DNA of 64,000 nucleotides from Dipteris shenzhenensis (lineage: Eukaryota): the NCBI GenBank assembly GCA_047967505.1, contig CM106538.1. One strand, 5' to 3'. Positions 3,053 through 64,000 of the stretch are shown one piece after another. A model generated the notes under the pieces. It did not search any database. It saw only the letters and a list, made by a program, of their open reading frames with translations, and was not told where the DNA came from. Made by a program: the position numbers and the translations under genes. Each line of letters begins with the position of its first letter. Positions within the stretch are counted from its first letter, which is position 1.

Positions 3053-3648
3053 TATATAATAGACAGATGCACCTATAGATGCGCCTATAGACGCTTTGTA
3101 GAAATTAAAAAAAAACAAAAAGACACGTACATAGATGCACTTATAGACACTTCTATTTGCAAGGCATGGACAGTGCTCAATCCTCCTACATATTGCATGT
3201 ACACATATAAAGTCTTTTTTTTAATAAAAGCAAAAATTTGTGTGGTTGAACAGAATGCTGTGTATCTTGTGTATGCTATGTGGTTATAAGAATCCCATTT
3301 CCACATTGTGCAATTCAATTCTTATAGCCAACTGCATTTTAAGTAGCACGTTTCCAAGCACGTCTATAGCCAATGATTACAATTCTAAATAAAACATTAC
3401 AACTCCAAAACGTTTAGTTCACAAGGCATTCATAGAATGTTGCACAAGGAAATTGAAAGCCAAAAAAATAAAAGGAGTGTATATTAATTCATAGCCCAAA
3501 AAGTGCTTATATGTACATATAGCATGAACCCAAGCCATGTCCTATGGCTTCAAGTACAAAAAATAAGAGGAGTGTATATACAGGAGAGGCATGAAACCAA
3601 GCCAATGGCTTCAAGTACAAAAAAGAGTAGCTAGCACTACTTCTACGA

Positions 3649-21307: not shown

Positions 21308-21525
21308 CACTACTACACATGAATCCTATTGCGACGTTTAGGTACCGACGTTTAGCGTGCACGTCGTGCTAATCATCGGTATGAAAAGCACATCCCGTAA
21401 AGCGTCACTATATAGCGACTTTAGGCAAATGTCGCTATATAGCAACTATTACAAAGGTCGCTATATAACGACTTTTAAGTCTCGCTATATAGCGACACTG
21501 AGATACTATTTTATAGCGATGGCGT
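21308..21525 (+). mobile_element. Left terminus of a canonical CACTA element
   Basis: CACTACTACA begins exactly where homology to the Copia copy at 58047 stops. Palindromic subterminal repeats GTCGCTATATAGCGAC follow. No matching right end was seen. Confidence 0.8.
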
Positions 21526-36926: not shown

Positions 36927-36929
36927 TAC

Positions 36930-39900
36930 GAACAATTGGGCATCCCAGAAGTACCGAACAACTAGGCAGCTGGTAGTACCAAACAACCAAAAATACAACG
37001 AGAATAAGCCACACATGTATGACAAGAGGCGAGCTTGTGTGGATTAGACACAGCTTACATAATCATAGTGGGAATAAATAACAACCTCTTCTCATTTGAA
37101 AGTACCAAACAACCGAGAAGACGAGCATCCGAGATTACTAAGGACATCTAAAAGTAACCAAGAAAATGGGCATCCGGGAACGGTGATCACGTCCAAACAA
37201 GTACTCAATAGTAATGCATATGTGCCACATCCAAATGATCAGTACTTAATAAATAATCCATATGTGCCATGTCCAAACAAGTACTGAAGAAGTAGTCTAT
37301 GTGTGTTCATCTGAAAGACATTGAACCTTGCCATGTGCAAATGAAGATGCAATATGACCATGTCCAAATGAGTACTCAATAAGTGATCCATATGTGTCCA
37401 TCGTGAAAGCTAGATAAATATGTGTCACATCCAAATGAGGACTTAGTAATAATCCATGTACCACGTCCAGACAAGTAAATATGTGTCACATCCAAACGAG
37501 GAGTCAGTAATAATCCATGTACCACATCCAGACGAGTACTCAAGTAGCTAGCCATATGCCACATCCAAATGAGTACTCAAGCAATTAGCCATATGTGCTC
37601 ATAAGTATTGTCACCTAAAACACATTGAACCTTGCCACGTTCTAGAAGTACTGAACAACTGGGCATCCTAGAAGCACCGAACAACTGGGCATCCAGAAAT
37701 ATCGAACAACAAAAAATACAACGAGAATAAGCCACACATGTATGACAAGTGGCAAGCTTGTGTGGATTGGACACAGCTTACATAATCATAGCGGGAATGA
37801 AATGACAACCTCTTTGCATCCGAAAGTACCGAACAATCGGAAAGACGAGCATCCGAGATTACAAAGAACATCCAGAAGTAACCAAGAAAATGGGCATCCA
37901 AGAACGGTGATCACGTCCAAAAAAGTACTCAATAGTAATGCATATGTGCCAAGTCCAAATGAGTACTTAATAAATAATCCATATGTGCCATGTCCAAATG
38001 AGTACTCATGAAGTAATCCATAAGTATCCATCTGAAAGACGTTGAACCTTGCCACATGCAAATGAGTATGCAATATGACCATGTCAAAATGAAAACTCAA
38101 TAAGTAATCCATATGTGTCCATTGTGAAAGCCAGATAAATATGTGTCACATCCAAACGAGGACTTAGTAATAATCCATGTACCACGTCCAGATGAGTAAA
38201 TATGTGTCACATCCAAACGAGGAGTCAGTATTAATCCATTTACCACATCCAGACGAGTACTCAAGTAGCTAGCCATATGCCACGTCCAAATGAGTACTCA
38301 AGCAATTAGCCATATGTGTTCATAAGTATTGTCACCTAAAAGACTTTGAACCTTGCCACATTCAAATGAGTATGCAATAAGTAATCCATAGATGCCACGG
38401 CCAAAGGAGTACTCAATAAGTTAGCCATAGGTGTTCCTCGTGAAAGACATATAAGTATACCTCACCACATAAAGGGCAAAATAAAAGTATGCCTTGCTTG
38501 AACCAATAAGTAAATACATACCATAAGTCATCAATAAGTTAATGAAAAAGAAGGAACAAATCATTGGTCTAGCAAGACCTTGCATGCACTCGTAAATATA
38601 GATGATTATGAAAAACAAAGTAGATGTACTCATCTTGTAGGTATCGAATGTGCATTTAGTCCGTTGGATTGTATCTAGGCATCTGTGCAAACCTGCATGT
38701 ACTTGGAGAAACAACTGAGTGTGATGAAAGAGAACATATGAGCTCACCTTGGATATAAACGAGTGCCTTGAAAATGACAAGAAAACATGTGAGAAGCACC
38801 GTCGCATATGTGAAGTAACGTATCCAAGGAGTAATGATATCAAAGCTAAATAGAAAAGAAACATTAAAATAAAACATGCTAGAATGTTAACAAAGTAAAA
38901 CATTCAGCAAGTCCTTTTCTTTCATAGGATCGACCAACTTATGAAAGTGAAGCTGGTGTTGAATATATGACGAGCAAGTCAAGCAAGATGTTAGCTTATA
39001 AGAGAGAAACAAACATTAGATCGACATTTTCTTTTACATATCAAGCACACCTACATGATATCTAGCCTACTCCAGATCAAATACAATGGATGGCCTATAG
39101 GCATGCTTGATTAACAAAGATGAAAGAGAACTGGCTTTCAAAATCATAAGATAATCGAAAGTAACTCTCACCTTCAAAATAACATAAAACATTTAGGAAA
39201 TCAAAAGTAAGTGATAAGATAATCGAAGAAAATCTAGCCTTCAAAACAATACAAAATATTTTGGAAGCTCCTTTGAATCAATTAGCTCATGCTGAAATTA
39301 AAGCTTGATATAGAATATTTGGCAAGTCTCTTTAACTAAGATTTATGGAAACTTGTAGCTATAGCTAAACTTGCTAGCAAAACAAAATAATACATGTATC
39401 ATCATTGTGAATAAAGCGCCAAGCATATGAATGTAGTGGAATACAAATAACATAACCTTTCAAGTAGAATATCAAGAACAAAGCATTGTATTGAACTACG
39501 ATGATATCATGGTTCCCAATCATGTACAACATTAAAGAAAGTTGGTTTATCTCTATACCAATAGGCAAAGAAAAGCTCCAACACATAGATGTATGTCATA
39601 GTAATTGCTGAAAAACAATCAAGTTTTGTGAGGCACCCAAGTATAGATATTGACAGAGCTCTTTGGTTGAAGTATGTTCTATGAATGTTGAGTATCAAAG
39701 CACTTACACAAAGACTCAGCAATCGATGAACTAAATAAGAAACTGGTCAATAAAGGATGCACTAAATAAAAACTAGCTTAAAATATGTGAAGCATCATTG
39801 GCTTTTACTTTTGCAAAAGCAGTATGAAACCACAAGTGTTGACGCACTATAATCTTCTTTTCACTGATGACGTAATAGAAATAAAAAATTGCTTTCATAT

Positions 39901-41011
39901 GATAGATAACCTTTTGTCCAAGTGATTTTCTCAATCAACTTTCTGGTCTGTTGAACGTATATAATTATCAGTATAAAAGCATGTAGATTGGGCTACCTTA
40001 CTCTTAACAACAAGATTGAGACTCTACTTGGTATCAATTAGATAAGATCTTGATCCCTAAAGATTGACTACGATTACAACAACGATCTTGCGCTCTTGGT
40101 TTTTATGGATATGATCGATGGGTGTTGGGTCTCCTCTTCATCTAAAATTTTATGGAGTCCTATAGCTAAATAAGTTTGTGTTATGTGATTGAGCATCTTA
40201 TTTCTTCATGTGGGAATGTAAAAGCATGATATGCCAATGTGTTAAATCCAAGGGAACACAAATACTAAGTGCAAGATGGTGTGATCAACTGGTGGAGACA
40301 AAAAGCGGGAGGGCGACACCGTATCAGGAAGCTTTTTATCATTAAGTATATTTTTTCATTGCTTTTGCTTTTGCTTCAAATATTGTTGGTTCTATAAAAG
40401 TATGAACCTTTTCCATCCTCATGTCCTAGATCAAGTATTCTCTTTTATGAATGTTCATCTTCCTGTCCAAAGACTCTTCTACCAGTTTATTGATAGCAGA
40501 CAGCAAAAAGAAATAACCATAACTTTCTTACCTGAAATCAAAATATAGTGATCCAACCAGTCAAAATAACTGATGCATATGCTTGAAACAAGACAGCATG
40601 GGCTGTTTTGATCAATCATGACCATAACACTGATTTGCGATGCATCTTTGATAACTTTTGCATATCAACTCAAAACATAGCAATCAAGTAGTCAAAACGA
40701 TCAGAAAGAACGTTCTGTGAATGATCGTGTTGCCAGAATGACAAAAAACATATCGCTTTCTCCTCACAGTCACGCTAGAGCATAGCCACGCTCTGATACC
40801 ATGCTGAGGGGAAGAGAAAGAAGAGAGAGATGAACACAAGAGTTGTGTTGAGAGGAAGAGAAAGAGGAGAGAGACCAACACAAGAGTTGTGTTGAGAGGA
40901 AGAGAAAGAGGAGAGAGACAAACCCTTAAAAGTGATTCTATTTATAGATCATAGGCATATATATAGTTGAGGACTAGGCTGAGTTAGGGCAAGCTATATA
41001 TAGCTCTAATA
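36930..41011 (-). mobile_element. LARD 5' half with PBS (40790-40801) and 5' LTR (40802-41011)
   Basis: GCTCTGATACCA is the reverse complement of PBS-Met. The LTR is homologous to 1576-1754 and has three internal ~37-bp GA-rich repeats instead of two. Confidence 0.85.
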
Positions 41012-42450: not shown

Positions 42451-44306
42451 GGACAAAAAGGGAGGACTTGCTAGGACTGCTTCTGAGCTCCATGTTACCA
42501 CTCTATCACAAAACACAAATGAATTATTGCACCTTGTAAACTTAGGCTTTAGAGACATGGAAAGAGTTTGTGGAACCTTTTTTATGGAATTTAATCATTT
42601 AAAATTAAAAAATATACAAATTTTCTAAAAATAGAGAGAGAGTACTTAAAAAGGAGGTGGAGGGCCTTATTTCTCAATTCAAGAGTTGGAATTGGAGCTC
42701 AAGAGCACTATAGAGGCTTGCACACATTTTGTGCAACTTTTAAGAAAAGGTTGGTCTTGTACTTGTCTTGTTTAAACTACATTCTAAAAATATAGTTTTC
42801 TAGAGAACATTACTTAATTTGTGGTTAATGTTTTGGGGTTCCACAAAGGTTTTTTTTTAAAGAGTTCATACGTTTGAAAAAGATAAGGAACAAATTTTGC
42901 TAGTATGAGGTATAGAGTTAGTTATGAGAAGATATTCTTGTCTATAAAATTTGGGTTGATTGCTTATAATTATTGAAACATAATTATATGTGAAAGTACA
43001 CAACATCCAAAGCAAAAGAAATTTCTCTTCTCAATATGAGTCCTCCATTCCAAAAGGAAAATAAGTTAGGATTCCAAAATCCAAACCGTGGAAGTCTTAT
43101 TTTTAAGAAATGGTTCTTTAGAGCTAGTGAAAAGGAAAGTAGGATTCTAGAATTGACTTCATATAAAGATTGGGATTTGTATCCTAACCTTAAATCTTAC
43201 ATTGGTTGTAAAGAAAAGAAATAGCTCTATTTGGGATTCTAGAATCCCAAAGTTTGGGAAGAGTGGATTTCTTGTAGGGGGTTGAGGGGCGATAGCCCCT
43301 TGGGGGGTCTAGAGGCAACACCCCCCTGTGGCGGTGGCCTCATGGGGCTACTCGATAAAAGGGCTGCAATGGGCATTTTTACTTCTATTGATATGAATGA
43401 GACTAATCCTATGATTTCTTGAGGCTGAGTGATAGGTTCCTTGCCTAGCCTATCAATTATGACTCTTTGAAGTTGTAGAAGGCTACATTGTCTTCTTCTT
43501 TTAATCATTGTAGGCCTGGGTCCTATTTGAGCATATGCTGCATTAGGGTAGATCCCTCTATTTTGAAGGGCATATTATTTCTTCTTCTTCTACATCCCTT
43601 TGAGGAACTTGCAAGGCCTTATAAGCTGAGGAGGTTGTCTAATAATTAGGATGGATTATATATGCTCCCTTACTTGACTTGAGCCTTTGCTCAACTTTGT
43701 CTTGGCACATAGGAGTCATTGATTATTTCCAGGATTGGGGTGGGATATTCACCCTTGCCCTCTGATGTTATTTCTTGGACCTGGGCATATATCATTCTGC
43801 TGCCAACTCAAAGGGTTCCACCAAAGAAAGATGAGGTGGCTGGGATGGTTGTATTTCCATACGACCCATCCTGGATGATTACCTTATTGTGTCCCTTATG
43901 AATGTTCATAGCACTCTTTGTACTTATTTGTGAAAATTTAGTTGCCACCTAGGGCTCTGATGCTAGCCTTATCCTATTTGGTGTGTTTGTCAAGCTCTTT
44001 GTTAAGGGCTTTGGGCTACAACCTCGTGATTACATTCAATGATACTAATGACACTTGGCCTCTATCTCTGAATTGTTAATAGGTTAGGCTTGTGGACTTA
44101 GAGGTCCTTCACATGAGGCAATCCTTAAAAAGATGGTCCACCCCATGCCTCGAGCACAATGGATTTGGTGCATTAGACATTGATGTAGGTAGCACGGGTT
44201 TGTTGTCTTTGTGGTCCTGCACACTTATAGCTTTGAATGGGTGGTGTCTTGCTAGGGTTGTCCATCCCTCTCATTTTTTGAGAAATTGATGTCGTTTGGT
44301 AAATGG

Positions 44307-44563
44307 TGACAAAATATGAAGAGGGGAGAGGAGAAGAGTGGAGATGAGGAGAGAGGGCACAGCTAGAGAGCACACCACAAATGACTAACTGTACACTAGA
44401 ATTAGTTGAAAAAATAGAATATATACAAACCCTTTTAGGGTTAGGGTTAGGGAAGCTAACCCTTTCCTTTATAGCACTCTATAAGGTTAGTGCTATGCAC
44501 ATATGATCACGTGATGGTGCTATGCACACATGATCACATGATGTTGAGCGTGAACTCTCAACA
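44307..44563 (-). repeat. 3' LTR of the intact Copia
   Basis: TGACAAAA...ACTCTCAACA. The adjacent PPT at 44564-44574 reads TTGAGGGAAGG on the minus strand. Confidence 0.97.
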
Positions 44564-44651
44564 CCTTCCCTCAAGATCAACATCATGAAGTAGGCCTTCC
44601 CTCAAGATGATGATTCTGGGGAATCGAAGAAGGACTGAGCATTACATTCCA

Positions 44652-47600
44652 TCACACCCCTTTAATGGGAATGTCCTTCCTCTGCATCAAACCAAGAGCT
44701 AGTCGGTGTTTCTCGAATAGCTCTTTACCGAGTGGTTTGGTAAAGATGTCTGCAACATTTTCTTTGCTATCACAATGCTGCAGTGTGATGTCACCAAGTA
44801 ACACTCTTTCTCTGATGAAGTGCTCTCTGACATCAATGTGCTTTGTCCTGGAGTGATATACTGGATTTTTGGCCAATGCTTGAGCCGATTGATTATCACA
44901 GTATATTGTTGTTGGCTTTGACTCATCAAAGTAATCTGTTTCTGACAATAGTCTTCTGAGCCATATAGCCTCACATGCACCTGTAGTGAGTGCTCTATAT
45001 TCTGCTTCAGTTGAAGACAAAGAAACAGTTGGCTGTTTGTTTGACAACCATGATATAGCACCTTGACCAAGGAAAAATGCATATCCCTGTGTCGATCTCC
45101 TGGTCTCATGATCTCCAGCATAGTCACTATCACAGTATCCATGCAACCGTGGATGACTTCCTCTGTATTCTATCCCAAATTGTCTTGTACCTCTGATGTA
45201 TCGCAAGACTCTTTTGGCTGCATTCCAGTGAGACTGTTTTGGATTTGCCATAAATTGTGCTAGTGAGCTTACTGCATAACAAATATCTGGCCGTGTGATT
45301 GTCAGATATATAAGAGATCCAATGAGTTGCCTGTAGTATCTGTCATTGACTGTAGGCTTTTCTGAATCTTTAGTAAGTTTCAAACTCTGTTCCATGGGAG
45401 TGGCTGCAATCTTGCAATCTGCCATATGAAACTTCTTCAGGAGACTGTCAACATATTTGAGCTGACTCATGAATGTGCTATCTGAATCTCTCCAGAACTC
45501 AATTCCAAGACAATAGTGCATAAGTCCAAGATCTTTCATGTCGAACTCTGCAGATAAGTCTTGTTTTAGTTTTCTGATGAAGCTATCCTTGCTTCCTGTC
45601 ACAATCAGATCATCTACGTACAAAAGTGCAATAGTAATATCTTCCCCTTGAACTGTGTAGTAGAGAGTATGATCTGCATTGGACTTCATGTATCCCAGAT
45701 CAGCAAAATACTTGTCAATTCTGCTGTACCAACTTCTGGGTGCTTGCTTTAAGCCATAGAGACTTTTCTTGAGATGGCAAACCTTGTTCTCCTGTCCTGG
45801 TTCAACATAACCGGCTGGTTGTTGCATGTAGACTTCCTCGTCTAGATAACCATTGAGAAATGCATTCTTGACATCGAGCTGATACACATTCCATTTACTG
45901 AGTGTCGCTAGTGATATCAAGAACCGTATGGAATCCATCTTTGCTACTGGAGCATAAGTCTCATCATAATCTTGACCATATTGTTGTGCAAATCCTTTTG
46001 CAACTAATCTGGCTTTGTATCTCTGAATACTGCCATCTGGATTGTACTTCACTTTGTATACCCATTTGTTGGCTATGGCCTTCTTTCCTGGTGGAAGGTC
46101 GCATAATTCCCAAGTGTTGTTTTTATACAAAGCATCCATTTCTTCATTCATTGCAGTTTGCCATTCTGGCTTATCTACTGCATCTTCGAAGTACACTGGC
46201 TCTTCTGTAGCCAGAATGGTAGTCATAAGAGCATAGTTGGTGGTTTCCACCTGAATTGCTTTGCCTTTCTGAGCATATGTCAATCTGGCTGGTGGTCTGC
46301 TTTCCCTAGTAGACCGTCTGAGCTGCTGTGACGCTGATTGGGGTGTTGCTGGCAATTCTTGCTCTTCTTCATCAACCTGTTCTGTAGATGACTGTGAAGT
46401 CGATGCTTCTATCTCCTGTGTAGGTGAGGTTTTCCATTCTGATTCCTCATCGAAGATTACATCTCTGGAGATGATGACTTTGCGGTTGATGGGATCATAC
46501 AATTTGTATGCTTTACTTTCTTCACTGTAGCCAACCATGATGCATTTGCGTGACTTCGCATCCAATTTCCTGCGATGATCATCATGTATGTGGGCATATG
46601 CTATGCAACCAAATATGCGGAGATGCCCAATGCGTGGCTTGTGTCCAGTGAATGCTTCATAAGGAGTCATTCCTTGTATCGGTTCGGTAGGAAGCCGATT
46701 AAGCAAGTAGTTAGCTGTAGCTATTGCTTCTGCCCAATACTGATTTGGAAGATGCTTTTCACTAAGCATTGCTCTAGCACTGTCTGCTAAAGTCCCATTC
46801 TTCCTTTCAGCTATTGCATTTTGCTGAGGAGTATCTGCACATGTGAATTGTCTTCGAATGCCGTGAGTTTTGCAAAAGTTCATGAAGGCTGAAGACATGT
46901 ATTCACCTCCTCTGTCTGATCTCATGACCTTGATCTTTCTGCCTGTTTGGTTCTCTACCATGGCTTTAAATTCTTGAAATCTTGCAAACACTTCAGATTT
47001 TTCTTTCAGAAAGTAGACCCAACAATATCTGCTGTAGTCGTCGATGAAGGTCAAGTAATAAAGTGAACCATTGATGCTGCGGGTCTGGGCATAACCCCAT
47101 ACATCTGTATGAATTAAATCAAGAATACCTCGTGCACGAGAGGTACTTCTGACAAAGTTGGTTCGCTTTTGTTTACCGAAGCAGCATGCTTCACAAACCT
47201 TTCCAAGAAACTGTAGCTTCGGAATCCCAATTGCCATATTTTGATTCCTTAGATCTAACAAGTACTTGAAGTTGACATGACCATATCTCTTGTGCCATTT
47301 TGCAGATAGTGGCATCTGTTGCATTTGAGCTGACATGGCATGCTTATCTGGTACTGTAGCTAGCATCCTGTATAAGCGTCCTTCCTTGACACCTTTTGCT
47401 ACTAGCTGACCTCTTTTGGATTTGTCTCTGATAGTGCATTCATCACCGTCGAAGATGACTTTGTAGTTGTGTTCCGTCATTTGACCTACTGACAAAAGGT
47501 TCTTACTGAGCTTCGGAACATAGAGCACATCTTTGACTAATCCTTTTGTACCAGTGAAATTGTTCATAGGGATAACACCTGTCCCTTGAACCGGATTCGG

Positions 47601-48908
47601 TGTATTGTCTGCTGTATAGATGACATTCTTTTGACCTTCTAATGGCTTCATTTCTGTGAACCATTCCTGATGATTTGTCATATGAGATGACGCACCGCTG
47701 TCGATGTACCAAGGATCTTGTTCCACTTGGTCGACTTGATAGCTGAAATCCTCTTTGGGATTGAAATCAGTGTCTTGGTGCATTGTATCAGTCTGATGCA
47801 ATTCCTCACTTGCAAGAAACATATTGCCATGTTCATTTGCAAAATGACTGTGACTAGAATGTCCACCACGATGATTTCCTCTTCCTCGGGAATTCCCTCG
47901 ATTACTGCTGGATTGACCGCCTTGGTCATACTGCTTCTTGCGGCAATCTCTTTCATAGTGTCCAAACTTGTGACAATAGTTGCATTGAATGTTTGACACA
48001 TTGGTGGATGCATTCCCTCGTCCTTGGAATCTTCCTCGGTTGGAATGATTTCCTCTTTGCTGATTTTGATGTTGCTGAGGATGCTGCTGATGCTGATGCT
48101 GATTCTGACTTTGATTTTGACCACTTTTCTGATATGATCTACCTCTGTTTCTGCCTTTGCCTCTGCTTCTGTCTGAAGCGGTGAATGCCTGATCATTAGA
48201 ATGACCTTTACGTGCTTGAATGGCCTGAGTCCTGAGTTCTTCACCAAGTAGAATTGACTGAAGTTCTTCCAGTGTTGGAATTTGCCGTTGGATGGCAATA
48301 CTCTGGACCAGATTCTCATATCCTTCTCCTAGTCCATTCAGGATTACTTGAACCATTTCTGCGGGATTCATAGTCTCTCCTGCTGCTGCAAGTTGATTGT
48401 TGTAGTCTTTGATGCGGAGTACATAAGCATGACCGGTTTCACTGCTGTTGCGGAAACTCTGGTTGATCTGGTTTCTCAGGGTGAGAATCCTGGATGTGTT
48501 CTTGGACTCGTAGAGAGCTGCGAACATATCCCATGCTTCTTTTGATGTCTTGACTGTGTTGAGCTGTCCTAGCATGACATCTTGCACATTCTGCTTGATC
48601 AGGTGATAGGCATACTTGTCTTTCTTATCCCATTCTGCTTGAGCTCGGGCAATGGCAGGATCTGCTACTGGTGCGGAAACCGTTTGTGTAGATGTAGATC
48701 CCGATGTAGATCCCGTTGCTGGTGCTGTGACAACAGATGGAGTAGAGCTACTGGTGGCTGGATCGGCAAATGGTCTAGGTATGGATCCATCAACATACTC
48801 CCATTTGTCCTGAAGCACAAGAATGGTCTCCATTCGGTATTTCCATGTACCGTAATTGGAGTTGTCTAACTTAGCAGATGCCTCCAGATTGAGGTTGCTA
48901 GTCGACAT
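44652..48908 (-). CDS. gag-pol: Copia Gag-Pol polyprotein, 1418 aa
   Basis: Gag (NYGTWKYRM, UBN2-like), zinc knuckle CNYCHKFGHYERDC, protease WYIDSGAS, pre-integrase WHKRYGH..CEAC, integrase IHTDVWG/RSDRGGEY/AERKN, RT QLDVKNAFLNG/LYVDD, RNase H DSDYAG/EAEY/CDNQSA/ADIFTK. Domain order is copia. Confidence 0.98.
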   Translation of the reverse strand: MSTSNLNLEASAKLDNSNYGTWKYRMETILVLQDKWEYVDGSIPRPFADPATSSSTPSVVTAPATGSTSGSTSTQTVSAPVADPAIARAQAEWDKKDKYAYHLIKQNVQDVMLGQLNTVKTSKEAWDMFAALYESKNTSRILTLRNQINQSFRNSSETGHAYVLRIKDYNNQLAAAGETMNPAEMVQVILNGLGEGYENLVQSIAIQRQIPTLEELQSILLGEELRTQAIQARKGHSNDQAFTASDRSRGKGRNRGRSYQKSGQNQSQNQHQHQQHPQQHQNQQRGNHSNRGRFQGRGNASTNVSNIQCNYCHKFGHYERDCRKKQYDQGGQSSSNRGNSRGRGNHRGGHSSHSHFANEHGNMFLASEELHQTDTMHQDTDFNPKEDFSYQVDQVEQDPWYIDSGASSHMTNHQEWFTEMKPLEGQKNVIYTADNTPNPVQGTGVIPMNNFTGTKGLVKDVLYVPKLSKNLLSVGQMTEHNYKVIFDGDECTIRDKSKRGQLVAKGVKEGRLYRMLATVPDKHAMSAQMQQMPLSAKWHKRYGHVNFKYLLDLRNQNMAIGIPKLQFLGKVCEACCFGKQKRTNFVRSTSRARGILDLIHTDVWGYAQTRSINGSLYYLTFIDDYSRYCWVYFLKEKSEVFARFQEFKAMVENQTGRKIKVMRSDRGGEYMSSAFMNFCKTHGIRRQFTCADTPQQNAIAERKNGTLADSARAMLSEKHLPNQYWAEAIATANYLLNRLPTEPIQGMTPYEAFTGHKPRIGHLRIFGCIAYAHIHDDHRRKLDAKSRKCIMVGYSEESKAYKLYDPINRKVIISRDVIFDEESEWKTSPTQEIEASTSQSSTEQVDEEEQELPATPQSASQQLRRSTRESRPPARLTYAQKGKAIQVETTNYALMTTILATEEPVYFEDAVDKPEWQTAMNEEMDALYKNNTWELCDLPPGKKAIANKWVYKVKYNPDGSIQRYKARLVAKGFAQQYGQDYDETYAPVAKMDSIRFLISLATLSKWNVYQLDVKNAFLNGYLDEEVYMQQPAGYVEPGQENKVCHLKKSLYGLKQAPRSWYSRIDKYFADLGYMKSNADHTLYYTVQGEDITIALLYVDDLIVTGSKDSFIRKLKQDLSAEFDMKDLGLMHYCLGIEFWRDSDSTFMSQLKYVDSLLKKFHMADCKIAATPMEQSLKLTKDSEKPTVNDRYYRQLIGSLIYLTITRPDICYAVSSLAQFMANPKQSHWNAAKRVLRYIRGTRQFGIEYRGSHPRLHGYCDSDYAGDHETRRSTQGYAFFLGQGAISWLSNKQPTVSLSSTEAEYRALTTGACEAIWLRRLLSETDYFDESKPTTIYCDNQSAQALAKNPVYHSRTKHIDVREHFIRERVLLGDITLQHCDSKENVADIFTKPLGKELFEKHRLALGLMQRKDIPIKGV

Positions 48909-49797
48909 GGTGCAAACAATGTACTCAAAAGTGTCCTGAAAAACTCTGTATGAATCAACTGCAAATACACTGAAGATGCCAAGTGAAATCTCTGTACCGT
49001 CGGTGAAGATAGAACTGCAGTATACAAAATCTGATCTGTGTTACAAGGCTTGTGGCAATGATGCCGGGAATAGCCAAGAGGCTTTACAAGGCTGAAAATG
49101 ATGTGCACGATGCCGTGAGATAGCCAAATAGGCTTTACAATGGTGGCATGTGTGTGTGAAAGCAAGTGCTATCTGCCCACTGTATCAATCTGCAATGCCG
49201 CTGAACTCTGAAGTCTGCTCACTGAACTGATGAACGGAAGATTTCAGGTAATGTAATGATGTGAAATCGGATGTGAGCGTATGGACTGACTCCGAGTAGG
49301 TACTAGTCGGGAATTTCGGGCATGGCTTAGATTGGCAACTTGGGGAATTCAAAGCGTCCCCTCTATGGCGATCTAGTCTACTCTGATCTAGATCTAAACC
49401 AACCGTCGATCGATGAAAGAGCAGCAAATAATTCCTTTTCTTTTGTTCTTTTTAAGTGCTGGGTCAGATGCGTCGATGTAGAGGCAAATGTGCGTGAAGG
49501 AAGTGGTTTTGTCGGCGAAGCTCAAATGTGAGTGTAACTTGCGCCGAAATGTGCGCGTGACATAACGAGCGCGTAGAGCACGAAAAATCGAGCGACTTTC
49601 CTTTTTGGAGCACCCTCAAATTCTTCCTAGATCAAGAGATATGACTTGATCTAGGTGGAGGGGCAAAAGGAGTGCAAATGGTGCTCAATGATGATGTGTC
49701 ACTGTGAGTCACATGCAGTGATGATGTGGCACTGTGCTTAGCAAGAGGTGTGCCAGTGAAGCTCTGTGCTGAGGTGGCAGTGCTGAGGTGTCACTGA

Positions 49798-50220
49798 TGA
49801 CGTGGCACTGATGACGTGGCAATGATGACGTGGCACAGATGACGTGGCTGATGACGTGGCAGGTGACGTGGCCTGATGACGTGTCACTGATGACGTGGCA
49901 GTCAATGCTGACGTGGCAGTCGGTGATGACGTGGCAGTCGGTGCTGACGTGGCAGTCGGTGATGACGTGGCAGTCGGTGCTGACGTGGCCTGCTTACGTG
50001 GCGCTGATGACGTGGCTCCAATGGTGACGTGGCAGATAAGGTCTGCCACGTGTCACAATGTAAACCAAGCTCTCTGACCTATGATCAATCTAACTGGGAT
50101 TAACTTACCCTGACCCAGGTTGGAGCTTATCTGCCACGTGTCATATGGATGTGGTTGCCACGTGGAGGATAAGAGCTTGGGAACATGCCACGTGTCGAGT
50201 GGCTATCTGCCACGTGTCGC
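49798..50220. promoter_or_regulatory. Array of ACGT-core bZIP-type motifs (ABRE/hex-like TGACGTGGC and G-box CACGTG) in the Copia leader
   Basis: 14 TGACGTGGC plus 2 variants in 49798-50033. CACGTG at 50047, 50135, 50159, 50189 and 50211. Function is inferred. Confidence 0.6.
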
Positions 50221-50726
50221 TTGGAAGGAGCTCACGGAATCTGCTGAGATGCCGACAGAATCTTGAAGATTCCGTCGTCGGTTTCGTTGGAGAGCGGCCG
50301 TTGATCGCCTTTGTTGTAGGAGCCATCGGTTGCGTGCGCCTTGCGTTACAGGCTTTTGGAAGCCGGTTTTGGAGCTGAGGCGCTTCACCTTCTTGCAACA
50401 AATGCGGTCGATATGTCGTGTCCTGGGATGCTGAATCTTGCCCTTCGACTTCAGCTGCCGTGTTGGACTCTCCCCTATCTAGTCTGTGCCTGTACGAGTA
50501 CGCCTCGTCAAACAAATTGTCCTCCACCGCCCGTCTGACCAGGCCTTCCTCCGAAGAATCTATAATCCTAATGCTAGCCAATTTGCGCCTCCAGAGTTTG
50601 CGCAGACGACATCTCCGCCGGTTCCAAGACCAATTCGGAGCCTTTCCACAAAGCGTGAGATTCTACACATCGGGGGAGATTCCCTGCGACATGGTCCTTG
50701 TGCTGAAGGCATAATCGTTTGCCTGA

Positions 50727-51059
50727 AGATTTGGAAGAGGCGAGGACGAGGTTGGAAAGGGGGCTGGAGAGAAATCAACCCCCGCGTGGAGAAGGGGCTT
50801 GGCAACCAAGAAAGAACGGAGTGCCAAGGCAGCGAACGGCTCCGTGTCGCAGCCTATGGACGTAGATGTCAAGGCCGCTGCAGGAGACAGCGGCAATTCT
50901 GCTCTCGATTTTGCGCTCAGCGGGCTTCTTGATAAGGGAACCAGCGTGAAAGATAAGCCTAAAACAGAGATGAAGCCTCGCCCTCAATTGAAATCTTTTT
51001 GTGAGAACATGGACTCGGACGGATTGCGCAAGTTCATTGCAGAACATAGTAAAGATTTG
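50727..51059 (+). pseudogene. Captured FRIGIDA-like gene fragment, antisense within the Copia leader
   Basis: 50967-51059 encodes EMKPRPQLKSFCENMDSDGLRKFIAEHSKDL, matching the start of the Frigida domain (PxLxxLCExMDxxGLxKFI). The frame is open from 50727. Confidence 0.75.
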
Positions 51060-51335
51060 AACTCTTCTTCTTCTTTCTCTGGACAGATAATGGACTTACA
51101 AAAGCTCTCTCTCACCATGAAATCTCTCTCAAAAACAAAACATAACTGAAATCTCTCAATGGAAATGTCTCTCGAAACTCTCAAGAGAAGAGAATGGACA
51201 GAATTCTCCACTCATTGAACGGAATTTTCTATCACTCTACGGAAGTGAAAGAATGAACACAAACTCTCAATCTCTCAATCAATCAATCACTCTCACTCTC
51301 TCAAGAATCGCAATGTCTCAGCGGAAGACAAGGGA

Positions 51336-51347
51336 GCTCTGATACCA
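51336..51347 (-). other. Primer-binding site (initiator tRNA-Met)
   Basis: TGGTATCAGAGC on the minus strand, abutting the 5' LTR. Confidence 0.95.
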
Positions 51348-51604
51348 TGACAAAATATGAAGAGGGGAGAGGAGAAGAGTGGAGATGAGGAGAGAGGGCA
51401 CAGCTAGAGAGCACACCACAAATGACTAACTGTACACTAGAATTAGTTGAAAAAATAGAATATATACAAACCCTTTTAGGGTTAGGGTTAGGGAAGCTAA
51501 CCCTTTCCTTTATAGCACTCTATAAGGTTAGTGCTATGCACATATGATCACGTGATGGTGCTATGCACACATGATCACATGATGTTGAGCGTGAACTCTC
51601 AACA
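51348..51604 (-). repeat. 5' LTR of the intact Copia
   Basis: Matches 44307-44563 base for base by eye. Confidence 0.97.
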
Positions 51605-53665
51605 AATGGTATATAGTGGTCATATTGCATAACTATTCACTTATAACAAAGGCCGATTTGCATTATCATCATAATATTGGGAATAGTCATTTCCCATGAA
51701 GGGTATGTTCAATTCTTCCTAATAATTAGGTAGCTCTTCTAGCCATACTTGATTCATGGGAATGATTCATTTGGTGGTGGTGGTTGAGGCACTAGTACTA
51801 GAGGGGGTCATGGAATATTTTGAGCCCTAAATTTCCTTTAATTAGCTGATGTGGCTCCTTGGATTGCCAATTGTGTGACTGATTGGGAACATTGGGAGGT
51901 GTGAGCAAGGCAATTTATGGCCTTGTTTGATCCGTTGCTTGGGGAACCATCTTAGGATACCTTTATTGGAAGGTGTCATGATCTCCCTAGTGAATGAAAT
52001 GGGCACAAAAGAGTGATGGCCTAGCCCTAAGGCATGGACACTCATTGTTGGGATGGTTGCCATTGCATACCCAACACCAAACATTATATCTTCATGGAAA
52101 AAAGTGGGGGTTTTATAGGAGCTTCCTTCGACATTCTTGCCTTCCATTGTTGGCTCAGCTAATTTAATATATTAGTGGCTAATTCCTATATGTTCATCTC
52201 TTAGGAGGTCCAACTTTGGCTAATTCCTCTATGTTCATCCCTTTGGTTGTGACACATCAAATGAAGCTAAATATTTCTCTCATTAGGACTTCGCCACATT
52301 ATGGTCACTTAGGTCAATCGTCGTCTTACTAGATGACTCAAATGATCTGGAATTCATTGCGCACAAATGGTCATGAAGCACAGGATCCTAGAACCCTATG
52401 AGGATGGAAACAACCATACATCTACTCCTGGGGTTTTGCATCGAGAGTTCAAATGTTTAATCCTGGTGATTTAATCATGGAGGGATTGCATTTCTTTATT
52501 TGACCTTATAGAGGGGTTCCACTTGGATCCACTAGGGGCAAATCCCACAATAAATGACTTACCTAGTGTATCCAAATTGATTTCTCATCCGAATTCAGTG
52601 CTCTAAACCATGGTCATCAAGGCTTAAGCCAAAATCATTTACTTTTTTTGGATTTAGGATATCACCAAATTTCTCCAAATCTATTCAAAATGCTCTACAT
52701 GGGAGGCTGATGGGTTTAATTTCAGAATGGTTTTCGTCTCTTCCCATAATTATTGGATGAATGACCCCCTTCCTAATACTTGTCCTAAGATCCCCATCGC
52801 CTCATTGGTAACTAAGATTTGTGAAGTTCGAGAAACATGGATGTGTTTATCAAAGCTATGCTTATATAGTATTATGAAATATAGGCGAAAATTTATCTAG
52901 CTTATTTTTTTAGTTTCACAATATTGATAGGGTGTAGTATAATTTTATATATTCTTTTGGAAGTTGAAGTAAAAAATGTAAATCCTAGCGTAAATTTAGA
53001 TTTTTTTGCATAAAGTTTCAAATATTGGTGAATTTCTCAAATGTTTATTTTTATTAGGGCATAAAATTTTTTGAAGCCAATATAAAATTTTAGCTTCTTA
53101 ATGAAACTAACTTGAAAAAATCGTCCATGAAGAGAAACATGAGGATACAGTGACCCTACTTTATATATTGGTGTTCTCGATGGAGGGTTCCATGTATTTA
53201 GTAGCTATACAAATGTAATATGTGAGGATCTTGACCCAATAGGAATTTGAATTGTGACTTGTGGTTGGTGGGGCCTACCATGCTAGGCTAAAGGACTTCT
53301 AGGAAGTGGCATGCTGACCCCATCATTAGAGGCCTATAAGGGGTGATTGTTGGGTATGGCCTACCGTGCTCTATGGCCAATGGAACTTCGGATGTGGGAG
53401 ATCTTATTTTTTTATTCTTTTGGATTACTCCTTCATCCACTATTTCTAGGATTTAAAATTCTTGATAGAGTTTGGGGCCAAATTTAACCCTATACGAATG
53501 GATTTCATCAAAGAATGGATGTGATGGTACTTGATTTCCAATAGATATGATTGGACTTGGTTCCCTGAGTTTTAGGAGGAAAATAAAGAATGGGGAAAAG
53601 AGAGTAATAAAGAGAGAAAGAGGTGAAAAGAGAGGGGGAAAAGAGAGGAAAAGAGAAAAGGAGAA

Positions 53666-54222
53666 TGTTACAGCTATATATAGCTCCCCTAAATCAGCCT
53701 AGTCCTCAACTATGATGAGGAACATGGTGTTACCACTAAGCAACCTCACTTATCCCAAGATCCTCCTTGTGATTATTGTTGCGGCAATCATCCATCCTTT
53801 TGGTATTACGAAGGCATTATGATCACGAACGTAATCAAGCATATGCTACTTAGCATCCTCCTATTGTTGATGCCCATACACATCAAGAGGAAAATCATAT
53901 CTACTGTTTGATATCTCTCTAGAGAGGATACCTCTTGTTCGAGATCGTTCCACTTTTATTGTTGATTCTAGTGCTATTGGTAGGTAATATGACATATCAA
54001 TCTCAATGGTTACATAATTATCATGCTCTTCTTCACAAGAAATTGGTTTATCTTGCTGATGACACTACTTGTCAATGTTAGAGCTATATATAGCTCGCCC
54101 TAACTCAGCCTAGTCCTCAACTATATATATGCCTATGATCTATGAATAAAATCACTTCCTCGAGATCAACTCTTGTGTCCATCTCTCTCCTCTTTCTCTT
54201 CCTCCCAACATGGTATCGGAGC
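53666..54222 (+). mobile_element. Duplicate of the partial LTR + gag fragment + LARD LTR (54076-54210) + PBS
   Basis: Collinear with 17187-17738. PBS variant TGGTATCGGAGC at 54211-54222. Confidence 0.8.
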
Positions 54223-55358
54223 CTCGATATGCTCTAGCATGACTGTGAGAAAAAAGCAACATGATTTTCGTCAATTTGACAAAGCGATCATTCAGCGAAA
54301 ACGTCTTTTCTGATCGTTTCGACCACTTGATTGTTAGGTTTCAAGCTAATATGCAAAAGTTGTAAAAGATGCATTGCCAATCAACCTCTCATCATGATGG
54401 ATGAAAACTCCCACAATGGCTTGTTCAAAGAGTATGCATCGGTTATTTTGACTGGCTAGATTACTATATTCCAATTTTAGGTAAGAAAGTTATGGTTATT
54501 TTTGTTTTACTGCCTGCTGTTAATAAACTGGTAGAAGAGTGCTTGAATAGGAAGATGAACACGCACAATTAGAGAGGACTTGATCTAGGACATGAGGATG
54601 GAAAAGGTTCATACTTTTGTAGAATCAACAATATTTGAAGCAAAAGAAAAAGCAATAAAAAATTTGACTTAATGATAAGAAGCTTCGTGATATGGCATTT
54701 CCCACAACATCAAAGGAATTTGGTTTATCTCTATACCAATACGCAAAGAAAAGCTCCAACACATAGATCTATGTCATAGTGGGTGGTGATCTTGGAATTA
54801 ACCATGGTCGTCTTGCTTAAAACCAATCATGTTTTTTGCAGTAGGTCCGAGTATAGATATTGATAGAGCTCTTTGGCTGAAGGATGTTCTATGAGTCCTG
54901 AGTAGCAAAGCAATTACACAAAGAATCAGCAACCGATGCACTAAATAAGAAGCTGGTGAGTAAAGGATGCACTAAATAAAAACTAGCTTAATAGATGTGA
55001 AGCATCCTTGGCTTTTACTTTTGCAATAGTAGCATGAAGCCACATGTGTTGAAGTGCTAAACTCTTGTTTTCACTGATGACCTAATAGAAAGAAAAAATT
55101 TCTTTCATATGATAGAAAACCTTTTGTCCAAGTGATTTTCCCAATCAACTTTCTCGTCTGTAGAACGTATATAATTATCATGTAAAAGCATGGAGATTTG
55201 GCTACCTTACTCTTAATGACAAGATTGAGACTCTACTTGTCATCGATTAGATAAGATCTTCATCCCTAAATATTGACTATGCTTGCAAAAATGATCCGAC
55301 GCGCTTGGTTTTTGTGGATATGACCGGCGTGCGTTGCGTCTCCTCTTCATCTAAATTT

Positions 55359-58300
55359 TGTTGAGAGAGAAGAAGAAGAGATGATAGACACACCAAATAG
55401 ACTCCCAAAGATTGATTCATATTGATCACTAGTTACATATATATAGGTGAGACCTAGTTCAAGTTAGGACAAGCTATATATAGCTCTAACACCCCCACTC
55501 AAACAAAGGTCTCTAGCTACGGATGAAAAAACCATTGGGGAGCACAAGGGAAAAGCTCGAGATCCTATATACAAGTATACAAGTTGATCATTTGTACAAT
55601 TATTTACAACTATGTAATGCAAATGTGCATTTATATACAAAAGGTCACCCATAGGTGTGTTAATCTTGGAAGAGAGAAGCTGCAAGAACTCCAAGTTCTG
55701 ATCATAGCACTGTCACGAAGCGTGCCTCACTAAGTCCTTTAGTGAGAATATCTGCAATCATCTGAGAAGTGGGAAAATGTTCAATCATTATCATCCCTTT
55801 CTTCACTTCATGTCTGACATAATGGTAATGAACAGCAATATGTTTGGATTTGTTATGCTCTGAACATAGTCTTTAGCCAAACTTATGGCACTTTGATTAT
55901 CACATCTGAGAGGAGTACTGGATGATGGAGGATGACCAATATCTGCAAGCAATTGTCGTAGCCAAACCAATTCTCGAGCTGCTAGAGAAGTCGCTATATA
56001 CTCAAATTCTATGGTAGAAACAACAGCACAACGTTGCTTCTTACTTGCCCAAGAGACCAAGCAACCACTGATAAAGAAGCAATTAATGCTTATAGACTGC
56101 ATAGAGAAGTGAGAGCTTACCAGTCTACATCTGTATATCCCAAAAGATCAAGAAACATCACAGGAGATGATTTTGTATGACGTCGATAAACTAATCCAAA
56201 ATTAGAAGTGCCTTTCAAATACTTGAGAACACATTTTGCTGCAGACCAATGTTGCATTGAGCGAGTAGCTAGATATTGTCCTAGAAAAGTGGCAGTAAAA
56301 AGAATATATGGTCGAGTGTTCAAACCGACAAACTGTAGGCAACCAACAAGATTGGCATAGGGTTGATGTGAAACCTCAACATCATGAGTCAATCGAGTAT
56401 TTTTGACAGAGCTCACAAGACAAGGAGTCGTCGCAAAGTGAGCATTTGTCAAGCCAAACTTTGAACTGCATCTTGAATGAATTTTATTTGTCAAAGTAGC
56501 AGAATTTCCTTGTGACAAAATCACAGAACTTGAATACCAAGACATGAATGAATGTCACCAAGATCAACCACATCAAATGCTGAGGATAAGATTTTCTTGA
56601 CATGTTGCAAGAAATCGAGATTGTTGGAAACAAGTATGGTGTCACCCACATAAAGAGCAAGAATGACAAAAAGAGCACCATCACATTTGGCATATAAGTT
56701 GGGGTCAGAGAAACAAGAGTTGAAACCTTGAGATGTTAGAAATTGATCAATTTTCATGCACGGGAAGCTTGTTTTAGACCATAAGAGCACGATGAAGGTG
56801 AAAAACAAGATGATCCTGACCGGGAAGTATGAACCCTTCCGGTTGCTCCATATAAATCTCCTCTTTAAGATCTCCATTAAGAAAAGTAGTTTTCACATCC
56901 ATTTGATGAATCTCCAAATCAAATTGAGTAGCAAAAGCCAAGAGTACTCGAATACTTAATGTGCTACGAACAATGGGTGAAAAAGTATCATGATAATCAA
57001 CTCTTGCAATTTGTGAGTATCCTTTTGCAACCAGACGAGCTTTAAACTTGTCAAAAGAACCATTAGCTTTAGTTTTGGTTTTATAAACCCACTTATATTT
57101 GATAGGAGTGTGACGAGGAGGTTGTTCAGTAAGAACCCATGTACCTTTAGAGATCAAAGAATCATATTTAGCTTCCATTGACTCTTTTGTGTAGAAGAGA
57201 TAGCTTCTATATAAGTAGTAGGCTCTTCATGAGCAACCATTGCATGCTCAATGATTTCAAAGTCATCAACACAATCATGCATAGAACCATGTTCAAAATC
57301 AATAGGTAGATCAACATAAATATCAACACTATCATCAGAGGCCTGTGTATGTGCAGGATGCAAATCATTGTCAACACATTGCTCTGCAGATGGAGTAGCA
57401 GTGATGCCATCAGATGAACGAGTAATGACATCAGAAGTGGAATCATGATCAAATAAAAAAGGAAAGACAACAAGTAAGGACTCAGTGTCCTCTGCATCCT
57501 CGATAGACCATGTCCCTCCCATTAATTGCTCATTGAATATGGCATCACAATTGATTATCACCTTCTTAGAGGAGGGATCATAGAATTTATAACCTTTAGA
57601 ATTCGGAGAATATCCAATGAATATGACCTTTTTGCTAGGAAGATCTAGCTTTTTTCGTGTCTCTTTTGGTAATGAATATAAGCAATGCAACCAAAAGTTT
57701 GAAAATGTGATATAGAAGGAGTCTCCCCTGTCCAAGCTGTGATTGGTATCTGACTAGAAGGTGCAATTGTAGGAAGATGATTTTGCACAAAGATGGCTGT
57801 CAGAAGTTCTCTTACCCAAAAGCTTTGAGATAATCTAGAATGAAGGAGCATACATCGCATAGCATCAAGAGAAGTGCGATTCTTACACTCTGCATGAGCA
57901 TTGTGTTGAGGAGAGCAATAATCATTAAAAAGATTAGAAATATGTTCTCCACCATTGTCACTATGAAGGGTCTTGATCCAAAAACTAGTATGAAGTTCCG
58001 TAGCAGTTTTATATTGCTTGAATATTGATAAGGCTTCTGACTTATGTCGCAAGAGAAATGCAGTTGTATATCTTGACCAATCATCAACGAAAGTGATAAA
58101 ATACCTGTAGAAAGACTTGGATGGAGGAAAAGGTCCACATATATTAGTGTGAACAAGATCCAATAAAGCATGTAATGAGTTGAAGTAGATGCATGAAAGG
58201 GTTCTCGATGATGCTTGCCAAGAGCACATATTCACAAAGGCCCATGTGAGGACGAGTTGGGAGATTCATACCATCCACAAGATCATCACGATTTATAGCA

Positions 58301-60542: not shown

Positions 60543-61421
60543 AATTTTTGTGGAGTCATGTAGGTAAAGAAGTTTTCTTTATGTGATTGATCCTCTTATT
60601 GCTCCATGTGGGAATGTGAAAGCATGATATGCTAGTGTGTTAGATTTAAGGGAACACAAATACTGAGTGCAAGATGCTGTGATCAATTGGTCGAGACTAA
60701 AAGCGGAAGGGAGACGCTGTATCAGGAGGCTTCTTATCATTAAGTCTAATTTTTCATTGATTTTTCTTTTGCTTTAAATATTGTTGATTCTATAAAAGTG
60801 TGAACCTTTTCCATCCTCTCTCATTATGGGTGTTCACCTTCCTGTCTAAACACTCTTCTACCTATTTATTGGCAGCAAGAAGCAAAAGGAAATAACCATA
60901 ACTTTCTTACCCGGTCAAAATACCCGACGCATTATACTCTTTGAACAAGCCATCGAGGGTTGTTTTCATCAATCATGATCACAACACTCATTTGCGATGC
61001 ATCTTTGATAACTTTTTCATATCAACTCAAAACCTAGCGATCAAGTGGTTGAAACAATCAGAAAGCACATTCTGCGAATGATTGCATTGTTAGATTTGAC
61101 GAAGATTACGTTGCTATCTTCTCACAATCAGATTAGTGTCAATTTTGGTTACTATCCTAAAAAGGAGTCTTTGGACTCACTTGCACAACAGAGGGCCTTT
61201 TTGGTTATGGTCTTGCAAGTTTTCTAGGGAGACTAGAGCTTCAAGTAGGATGCCTTACTCATTGATACTACTTTTGATATATATTCTCCATTCTCCACAA
61301 TATAGAGTTACCAACTTGAGTGATGAGGGATGCCCTAAGAGGGGAGATAGCATCAAAAGGTGAGAATAGATTGAGTGATAGGACCATGAGAGGTGGATGC
61401 AGTGAGTAAGTGCGACACAAT

Positions 61422-61646
61422 TTTAGGGGGGTCACTCATAAAGATGTAAGAATAGCATGTGGGGCAAACAAAAGAATTTTTTAAACTCAACTTGTTTTGG
61501 CACATTTTTTACATAAGAAGGGTACCATTAAAAGGGGGTATTCACAGATTGGATACAAAAAGGGTGCTTTTTTTTCTTAATTAAGGGACTCTTCAATTAG
61601 TCCTTGAATGCACATGATACAGAACTTACATAAAGTGAACCCCAAG
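61422..61646. mobile_element. MITE related to 2172-2417
   Basis: TTTAGGGGGGTCACT...AGTGAACCCCAAG with TSD GACACAAT. Internal similarity to the 2172 MITE. Confidence 0.7.
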
Positions 61647-62378
61647 GACACAATTGAGTTTGAATGAGATTCGAAATGATCAAGACAAAACTGTAACAAG
61701 AGAGACCTTTGCAACGATGGGTATTGGCACAAGGGAGAGTATGAGTTTGACTTTGTAATATTTTTTCTCTCATGCCCGCTTTCCAAAATCAAATTCATAC
61801 TCTACCTGCTAAACTCATATTTTCTAGGAGTTAGAGATATAGTCTTATTGTTAAATTTTCTTGATCAACCCTCCAGAAACAATTGCCCTGATAATGGGTT
61901 CCTTTGCTACCTCGTCCTCTTCTGCCAGTATTATGTGGATTCTCCCAACCAGCCCCTTCTCATTACCAAATTTAAGAGGTAAGTCTTCTAATCCTCTCTC
62001 CATCTTGCCATTCGCCATCCTGACATTCGAATGCTAATCCATAAGTGCAATTGCCAAATTCCAGAGGTAAGCTTTTTATTCATTTCATCTAAGAAAGTCT
62101 GCAATCTTGCATCGAATGTTTGACTAATCATATCAATCTATAATGCTTGTCTCATAACTCCGCTCATTCGGTGCTAGCAGCATCCGGAAAAATCTCCCAC
62201 ATTGTCAATTGAAACAACATTTGACAACAAGCTAAGAAAGAAGACTTTTCACCGCTCGTAATCGTTTCTGCCCCAATCCGAGTTGAAGATATCAGTTATT
62301 TCTTTGAAGTCTATGTTGTTTCAAAATGATCGAATGATTTTAAAGATCTTTCAATGATCTAACATACATTTAAAAAAG

Positions 62379-62790: not shown

Positions 62791-63279
62791 AAAATCTTTG
62801 AAAGAAGACAATTCAATGAAGCACAAGCTGAAACAAATTCATGAGCAAACCTTTAAGGCAATAAATATTGGCTTATGTGAGCCTCGATAATCCTAAGGTG
62901 AATGCAAACAATGCATTTAACTACGGATATTAAGGAGGTAGATACCATTAAAAAAGTGAATACAGTGCATGTCACTCAACTCAAAGCAAAAGTGACACTT
63001 TTGATATATATTCTCCATTCAACATGGGTGCAGATAAAGGTGTCAACAATCCTGGCCATGGTAAAATGCAAGAGGTAAACATAGTTGTGGAAGTGTATGC
63101 CTTTTACCAAATATTTTTAGGAACATAATTCTTTGTCATTGGGTAAAACTTTCCACAATATAGAGTTACCAACTTGAGTGATGAGGGATGCCCTAAGAGG
63201 GGAGATAGCATCAAAAGGTGAGAATAGATTGAGTGATAGGACCATGAGAGGTGGATGCAGTGAGTAAGTGCGACGCAAT

Positions 63280-63504
63280 TTTAGGGGGGTCACTCATAAA
63301 GATGTAAGAATAGCATGTGGGGAAAACAAAAGAATTTTTTAAACTCAGCTTGTTTTGGCACATTTTTTACATAAGAAGGGTACCATTAAAAGGGGGTATT
63401 CACAGATTGGATACAAAAAGGGTGCTTTTTTTTCTTAATTAAGGGACTCTTCAATTAGTCCTTGAATGCACATGATACAGAACTTACATAAAGTGAACCC
63501 CAAG
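63280..63504. mobile_element. Duplicate of the MITE at 61422-61646
   Basis: Same termini. TSD GACGCAAT/GACACAAT. Confidence 0.7.
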
Positions 63505-64000
63505 GACACAATTGAGTTTGAATGAGATTCGAAATGATCAAGACAAAACTGTAACAAGAGAGACCTTTGAAACCATGGGTATTGGCACAAGGGAGAGTAT
63601 GAGTTTGACTTTGTAATATTTTTTCTCTCATGCCTGCGTTACAAAATCAAATTCATACTCTACCTGCTAAACTCATATTTTCTAGGAGTTAGAGATATAG
63701 TCTTATTGTTAAATTTTCTTGATCAACCCTCCAGAAACAATTGCCCTGATAATGGGTTCCTTTGCTACCTCGTCCTCTTCTGCCAGTATTATGTGGATTC
63801 TCCCAACCAGCCCCTTCTCATTACCAAATTTAAGAGGTAAGTCTTCTAATCCTCTCTCCATCTTGCCATTCGCCATCCTGACATTCAAATGCTAATCCAT
63901 AAGTGCAATTGCCAAATTCCAGAGGTAAGCTTTTTATTCATTTCATCTAAGAACGTCTGCAATCTTGCATCAAACGTTTGATTAATCATATCAATCTATA

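Follow-up and report, generated by a model that had tools for sequence, protein, structure and literature searches.

In the maize LTR retrotransposon Bs1, most of the element's own genes are missing, and captured host-gene pieces form an expressed hybrid reading frame in sense orientation. The transduced pieces of Bs1 stem from three host genes, and the capture of gene fragments by plant LTR retrotransposons is described in print (PMC13317346, PMC7264820). Furthermore, 1343 transduced sequences have been reported for the LTR retrotransposons of sorghum (PMC13317346), and Muyle et al. (10.1101/777037) describe fragments of exons from 1,629 donor genes in 1,263 maize transposable elements (TEs), Copia-type Sireviruses among them. 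According to the same study, the donor genes have more siRNAs and more methylation, and the expression of conserved donors is maintained (10.1101/777037). The standard route of acquisition for LTR elements is a switch of the reverse transcriptase (RT) to a co-packaged host mRNA, which results in sense insertions (PMC13317346, PMC7264820); indeed, transduced sequences in LTR retrotransposons are usually found in the sense of gag-pol (PMC7264820). Open frames antisense to gag-pol are described for the elements Grande, RIRE2 and Retand, in which they are placed downstream of pol, ahead of the 3' LTR; they are conserved among copies and have no host-gene match (PMC7264820).

Here we analyse a window of 64,000 nucleotides (the whole stretch of Dipteris shenzhenensis DNA under study), in which the leader of a Ty1/Copia element contains a fragment of a FRIGIDA-like (FRL) gene next to a piece of a second host gene. 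As in Bs1, pieces of more than one host gene are present between the LTRs of the Dipteris element, and none of them is whole (PMC13317346, PMC7264820). In contrast to Bs1, the Dipteris element has a complete gag-pol gene and harbours its captured pieces in the leader; moreover, the FRL piece runs antisense, and we see no sign of a hybrid frame. Like the Sirevirus, Helitron and Pack-MULE captures of maize, the element holds a host exon fragment that appears near enough to its donor for shared siRNAs; the maize study, however, measured small RNAs, methylation and expression genome-wide, whereas the present comparison concerns one element and is made from sequence alone (10.1101/777037). Like Grande, RIRE2 and Retand, the element contains an open frame that runs antisense to gag-pol (PMC7264820); here, however, the frame is situated in the leader, one related copy lacks it, and its host origin is clear. 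In the literature library searched, judged by title and abstract, the capture of a FRIGIDA fragment by a retrotransposon seems unreported, and the words "orientation" and "antisense" do not occur in the text of Jiang & Ramachandran 2013 (PMC3726574). We regard the locus as a clean, well-delimited case of host-gene capture in a non-seed plant, by a Copia element that is still intact. What this case adds is the exact borders, the empty paralogous insertion site, the second piece and the fact that the FRL piece, unusually, is antisense in the leader.

Structure and age of the Copia element

The element occupies positions 44307-51604 on the minus strand and is complete. It is bounded by two direct copies of a 257-bp LTR (5' LTR, 51348-51604; 3' LTR, 44307-44563; both on the minus strand), which are 100% identical to each other and, in element orientation, start with TG and end with CA. 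The same five bases (AATGG on the plus strand) are found outside both LTRs as target-site duplication, at 44302-44306 on the left and at 51605-51609 on the right. Sequence inspection revealed a primer-binding site (PBS), TGGTATCAGAGC, directly after the 5' LTR (51336-51347, minus strand) and a polypurine tract, GAGGGAAGG, directly upstream of the 3' LTR (44564-44572, minus strand). We take this PBS to be of the initiator-Met tRNA type that is usual in plant Copia elements. The LTRs with their 5-bp duplication are thus of Ty1/Copia type, and so are the PBS and the polypurine tract. Three perfect TTAGGG units are present in each LTR (44435-44452 and 51476-51493); this telomere-like hexamer is unlike the plant-type heptamer.

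The gag-pol polyprotein gene (44652-48908, minus strand) is uninterrupted; counted from its first ATG (48908), it has 1418 codons, and the stop codon is at 44652-44654. The open frame as such extends over 44652-49040 (1462 codons) and contains the whole Copia domain set in one frame. Pfam recognized Retrotran_gag_2, Pol_BBD, gag_pre-integrs, rve, SH3_retrovirus and RVT_2 (E 4.2e-79) in the polyprotein, and the DSG motif of the protease is visible in its translation. The integrase (rve, residues 642-737) is located ahead of the reverse transcriptase (RVT_2, residues 974-1217), which is the Copia order; the open frame as a whole follows the Ty1/Copia arrangement of gag, protease, integrase and RT/RNase H.

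The element is inserted in one copy of a segmental duplication of ~8.5 kb (12801-21308 and 42945-58048, ~94-96% identity). The second copy (42945-58048) is broken by the Copia element, and in the first copy the insertion site is empty: at the paralogous position around 14500 (14497-14503), AATGG occurs once only. Hence the element inserted cleanly and after the segmental duplication had arisen, and the identity of the LTRs implies that the insertion is very young. The Copia element is thus recently inserted and structurally complete.

The FRIGIDA-like fragment

An open frame of 140 codons is present on the plus strand at 50727-51149, i.e., antisense to the Copia element, and its FRL-like part ends with KPRPQLKSFCENMDSDGLRKFIAEHSKDL. 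Pfam detected the Frigida domain (PF07899) in this frame with E 1.9e-7 and 31.2 bits, above the curated gathering score of 25.7. The match spans residues 81-113, which correspond to profile positions 2-34 of 289; the sequence is thus a fragment, with neither a whole Frigida domain nor a complete member gene. A phmmer search among 1.84 billion representative sequences resulted in 10 proteins with E <= 0.001, the best of which was an Adiantum protein (E 4.1e-8, 44% identity over residues 30-116). Those matches that bear a name are annotated as FRIGIDA-like and belong to a fern, Adiantum capillus-veneris, and to the lycophyte Selaginella; two further matches are unnamed entries from Psilotum and Ginkgo. 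These nearest relatives point to a fern, or some other vascular plant without seeds, as the probable source of the window. All five matches that were scanned possess the full Frigida domain (positions 2-3 to 287-288). The full-length FRL proteins (Adiantum A0A9D4V509, Selaginella FRL3) have 567-616 residues, with an N-terminal coiled-coil region and 286-287 of the 289 domain positions. They align with the fragment over the linker and the first domain motif, whereas the fragment itself comprises 85 residues and 33 domain positions. Indeed, when FRL proteins were compared with the window by tblastn, similarity was confined to about 50811-51074, where the alignment takes in the variable linker, in which an MDVD-like motif is shared, and the domain's first conserved motif. 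In the 64-kb window, tblastn revealed no other convincing FRL piece and no counterpart of the N-terminal coiled-coil part or of the remaining Frigida domain. A word-indexed protein search returned no relatives; note that this index misses relatives at ~44% identity.

Six public runs hold parts of 50400-51347, and four of them (X1-X4) were aligned to 48800-51700. Their sequences are assembled contigs of guessed kind, which are called expressed here on account of contig shape and depth. Note also that these runs may come from related species, so that the 2-3% difference from the window may be partly interspecific. They give no cover at 50061-50351 and 51128-51224, nor, in X1 and X2, beyond 51061. 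Contigs of 733, 1055 and 1220 nt (X1, X2 and X3, respectively) match exactly 50805-51061, with 6, 6 and 9 mismatches per 257 bases and without gaps, and two short X4 contigs stop at 51061 and 51056. Beyond both borders, the FRL contigs continue for hundreds of letters that do not resemble the window. Ahead of 50805, X1, X2 and X3 share identical letters, from which X4 deviates at one letter, and this stretch is open in frame; behind 51061, the letters of X2, X3 and X4 agree among the loose ends listed. The letters behind 51061, translated manually in the reading frame of the FRL piece, read N-A-L-S-A-E-L-P-F-A, where the Adiantum protein has NAISTELPFA. As their flanks continue the FRL frame, the contigs are FRL coding sequence, of which the window holds an internal excerpt of 257 bases (50805-51061, plus strand) with the variable linker and Frigida-domain positions 2-34. 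The contig borders at 50805 and 51061 also mean that the FRL similarity stops abruptly. Neither AG nor GT is present in the window at these borders, i.e., no intron remnants were kept.

The original prediction had placed a FRIGIDA-like host-gene fragment at 50727-51059, antisense inside an intact retrotransposon, with its similarity ending abruptly about 280 bp from the PBS. The Frigida score of the frame ending with KPRPQLKSFCENMDSDGLRKFIAEHSKDL bears out its FRL-like nature, and its host origin is confirmed by the FRL relatives and by contigs that continue as FRL. The orientation was also recognized correctly, since the FRL piece is on the plus strand of a structurally complete minus-strand Copia element, and the abrupt end proved to be the contig border at 51061, 274 bp from the PBS. 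The coordinates held for the main part, which lies at 50805-51061, and failed at the left end, where the frame opens with 26 codons (50727-50804) of non-FRL sequence. A truncated peptide, which had likewise been considered, is not supported as a useful product, with 33 of 289 domain positions. The frame starting with Met (50856-51149, 97 codons) could yield no more than a peptide of linker sequence followed by a foreign tail. The start of the FRL gene itself is absent as well, and the fragment cannot encode a working Frigida domain.

The second captured piece

Besides the FRL piece, the leader contains at least one other host-gene piece, and this mosaic had escaped the original prediction. Contigs of 1553, 1621 and 1414 nt (X1, X2 and X3, respectively) match exactly 50383-50775 (393 bp) with 6-9 mismatches and one gap, and their flanks are unlike the window on both sides. 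The X4 version is more diverged (33 mismatches and 7 gaps in 291 bases). Window base 50582 is absent from all four runs. If this base is removed, one frame of the minus strand stays open through all 130 codons; with the base in place, every frame contains a stop. A fully open frame was obtained by chance in 83 of 5000 shuffles (1.7%). Furthermore, 8 of 12 X4 differences in 50413-50537 (among the rows listed) are at the third codon position of the minus frame. The piece is probably coding sequence of another expressed host gene, oriented like the Copia element (i.e., probably on the minus strand), where both coding status and orientation are judged by the single argument of the open frame. We infer that it was frameshifted after capture by the extra base at 50582.

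Searches with this piece gave the following picture. Pfam assigned no family to five of its frames or to its two halves, and comparison with PDB sequences resulted in chance-level rows only (E >= 0.02). The ESM Atlas, queried with the plus frame only, returned a best value of 0.81 with low recognition and nothing usable, and the word-indexed protein search, which misses relatives at ~44% identity, returned nothing.

The two captured pieces are separated by a spacer of 29 bp (50776-50804), which is possibly part of a third short patch at 50763-50797. For this patch, loose ends at 50763 and 50797 together with extra depth in X2 are a hint only, and the same applies to another possible patch at 50353-50394, with loose ends and extra depth in X1. 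Both candidate patches would stem from other transcripts and share 12-13 bases with the respective end of the 393-bp piece. Such overlaps would be as expected of microhomology-guided template switches.

The leader: array, native and variable parts

The leader between the PBS and the ATG of gag (48909-51335, minus strand) is ~2.4 kb long and contains, apart from the captured pieces, a tandem array in which ~20 TGACGTGGC-type units recur every 12-18 bp (49716-50035). The array is followed by four GCCACGTGTC-type motifs (50040-50225). When the whole 64-kb window was counted, all 15 occurrences of ACGTGGC and all 14 occurrences of TGACGTGG were inside 49700-50260. The ACGT motifs are presumably of the bZIP type that confers a stress response, and the array could act as a bZIP-type enhancer downstream of the transcription start. 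Other runs contain contigs that connect over parts of the array, with 45-200 bases skipped; the array is therefore native to the element, and its copy number differs between copies of the family. The only inverted repeats in the leader are the ACGT motifs. No match to the leader was found in the plasmid collection.

Parts of the leader (49000-49777 and 51286-51347) are common to related copies in the public runs, and many contigs at 80-95% identity extend over 49000-49777 and 51225-51604; the latter two regions are the Copia family's own sequence. Record 12 of X2 (2425 nt) is a related copy, which matches 49498-49777 and 51286-51604 and has 1643 other letters in place of the 1508 letters of the window (49778-51285). 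At least one related copy is thus without both captured pieces, and the presence across family members, which the original prediction had named as a check, does not extend to it. Among the contigs listed, none bridges a captured piece and the Copia leader, the chimera being seen in the window alone. A joint from 49156 to 51348 (X1, X3) has only 24 letters on its short side. The summed contig depth is by far the highest at 49285-49769, both in X3 (2000-3600) and in X1 (67-240). The contigs there are only 85-90% identical to the window, and this part of the family is either the most abundant in these two runs or the one shared most widely.

Origin of the mosaic

Host-derived sequence is thus present between the LTRs, as two host-gene patches, 29 bp apart and of mixed orientation, in the variable middle of the 2.4-kb leader. 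The FRL piece (plus strand) does not have the same sense as gag-pol (minus strand), which RNA template switching would give, and, as transductions are usually in sense, it does not fit the textbook route. We consider it likely that a young Copia element carries an ancestral host-gene mosaic in its leader, the patches of which are now passengers with a plausible activity at the RNA level only. The patches would most likely have been copied in by template switching or by patch-wise "filler" synthesis. Patchwork at the DNA level could result from filler synthesis in break repair or from switching during plus-strand synthesis on the cDNA, and the mixed orientation together with the lack of transposon ends favours such DNA-level repair or cDNA switching over a simple RNA-to-RNA switch. 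As to time, we infer that the capture took place in an ancestor of the present copy and was followed by at least one round of retrotransposition, in which the patches would have been passengers. The patches differ from all four runs at 50481, 50714, 50970 and 51002 and, in addition, by the extra base at 50582. Set against the identical LTRs, these differences argue for more time since the capture than since the insertion; this argument is weaker if the runs are of other species. Since sense capture via RNA template switching is the usual model, the mixed orientation is of interest, and together with the possible short overlaps at the joints it bears on how LTR retrotransposons acquire host DNA.

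Alternatively, the patches could have been added to this one copy after its integration, as filler in break repair, and never been mobilised. Such an origin would account for short pieces of mixed orientation that form a mosaic around a 29-bp spacer, for the possible overlaps of 12-13 bases with further short patches, for the fact that transposon ends were not found and for the related copy without the block. We nevertheless regard it as unlikely, as the identical LTRs indicate a very young insertion, yet the patches are diverged and one of them carries the disabling base 50582 (here, too, the divergence counts for less if the runs are of other species). There is only a very slim chance that a fragment-carrying DNA transposon (Pack-MULE, Pack-CACTA or Helitron) within the leader brought both pieces. 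Several gene pieces in mixed orientation are typical of Pack-type elements and Helitrons. Elements of these kinds are indeed described with such contents (PMC13317346, PMC7264820), but the borders of the block show no terminal inverted repeats of at least 8 bases and no flanking direct repeats of at least 7 bases, and the ACGT motifs are the only inverted repeats of the leader; Helitron ends were checked by eye only. Finally, the similarity to FRL could be due to chance, or a native Copia leader could merely resemble FRL. The Pfam profile match comprises only 33 residues, which would be in line with this, but its score is above the curated cut-off, the similarity to fern and lycophyte FRLs extends over 85 residues, and near-identical contigs run on as FRL past both borders. 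The probability of a chance resemblance is therefore negligible, and it was rejected on the Pfam, phmmer, tblastn and contig evidence.

Possible effects at the RNA level

RNA is the only level at which the FRL piece could plausibly be active. Inclusion of the leader in the transcript initiated in the 5' LTR is standard LTR-retrotransposon biology. Such a transcript would carry 257 bases complementary to FRL mRNA. Furthermore, siRNAs silencing the element could match the donor FRL gene, as for captured fragments in maize. By simple arithmetic, 6-9 mismatches in 257 bases leave at least one perfect run of 25-36 bases. A divergence too large for shared siRNAs, which the original prediction had named as the weak point of its regulatory part, was thus not found, and the FRL piece appears close enough to its donor to share 21-24-nt RNAs, provided that the runs are from the same or a very close species.

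The same features could be combined into a working TE-host module, in which the ACGT/G-box array activates the element and antisense RNA or siRNAs tune FRL. The antisense position of the FRL piece within a transcribed leader would suit such a module, as would the near-identity to the FRL contigs, which forces perfect runs of at least 25 bases, and the striking array that this leader also contains, together with all 15 ACGTGGC motifs of the window; moreover, such cross-talk is documented in maize (10.1101/777037). However, the block is absent from one related copy and so is no family feature, the neighbouring piece is frameshifted and probably has the opposite orientation, as for random patches, and in maize the expression of important donor genes is not lowered (10.1101/777037). 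On balance, we regard a working module as improbable. That a currently mobile Copia lineage, with an antisense FRL copy beside ~20 bZIP-type ACGT motifs, is activated by the environment and lowers the FRL chromatin regulator through siRNAs or an antisense RNA acting in trans is a highly improbable proposal; if true, it would amount to a transposon-borne, stress-gated switch on a developmental regulator. The concept is not new in any case. The original prediction spoke of an undescribed TE-host regulatory system, but the regulatory idea is an already described cross-talk scenario, and both capture and siRNA cross-talk are in print (10.1101/777037, PMC13317346, PMC7264820).

Other features of the window

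The region 5225-6069 is internally repetitive and strongly purine-skewed (GC skew 0.28, AT skew 0.36). It contains three overlapping minus-strand open frames of 285-321 codons and is presumably an array of tandem or low-complexity type. A repeat of 2-4 kb is found in several copies of ~90-93% identity and in both orientations (9372-12804, 29540-33540, 34917-40087), and probably represents another transposon family. Finally, an 849-bp direct repeat with 98.5% identity (61294-62142 and 63152-64000), which reaches the end of the window, possibly consists of LTRs or a tandem duplication.
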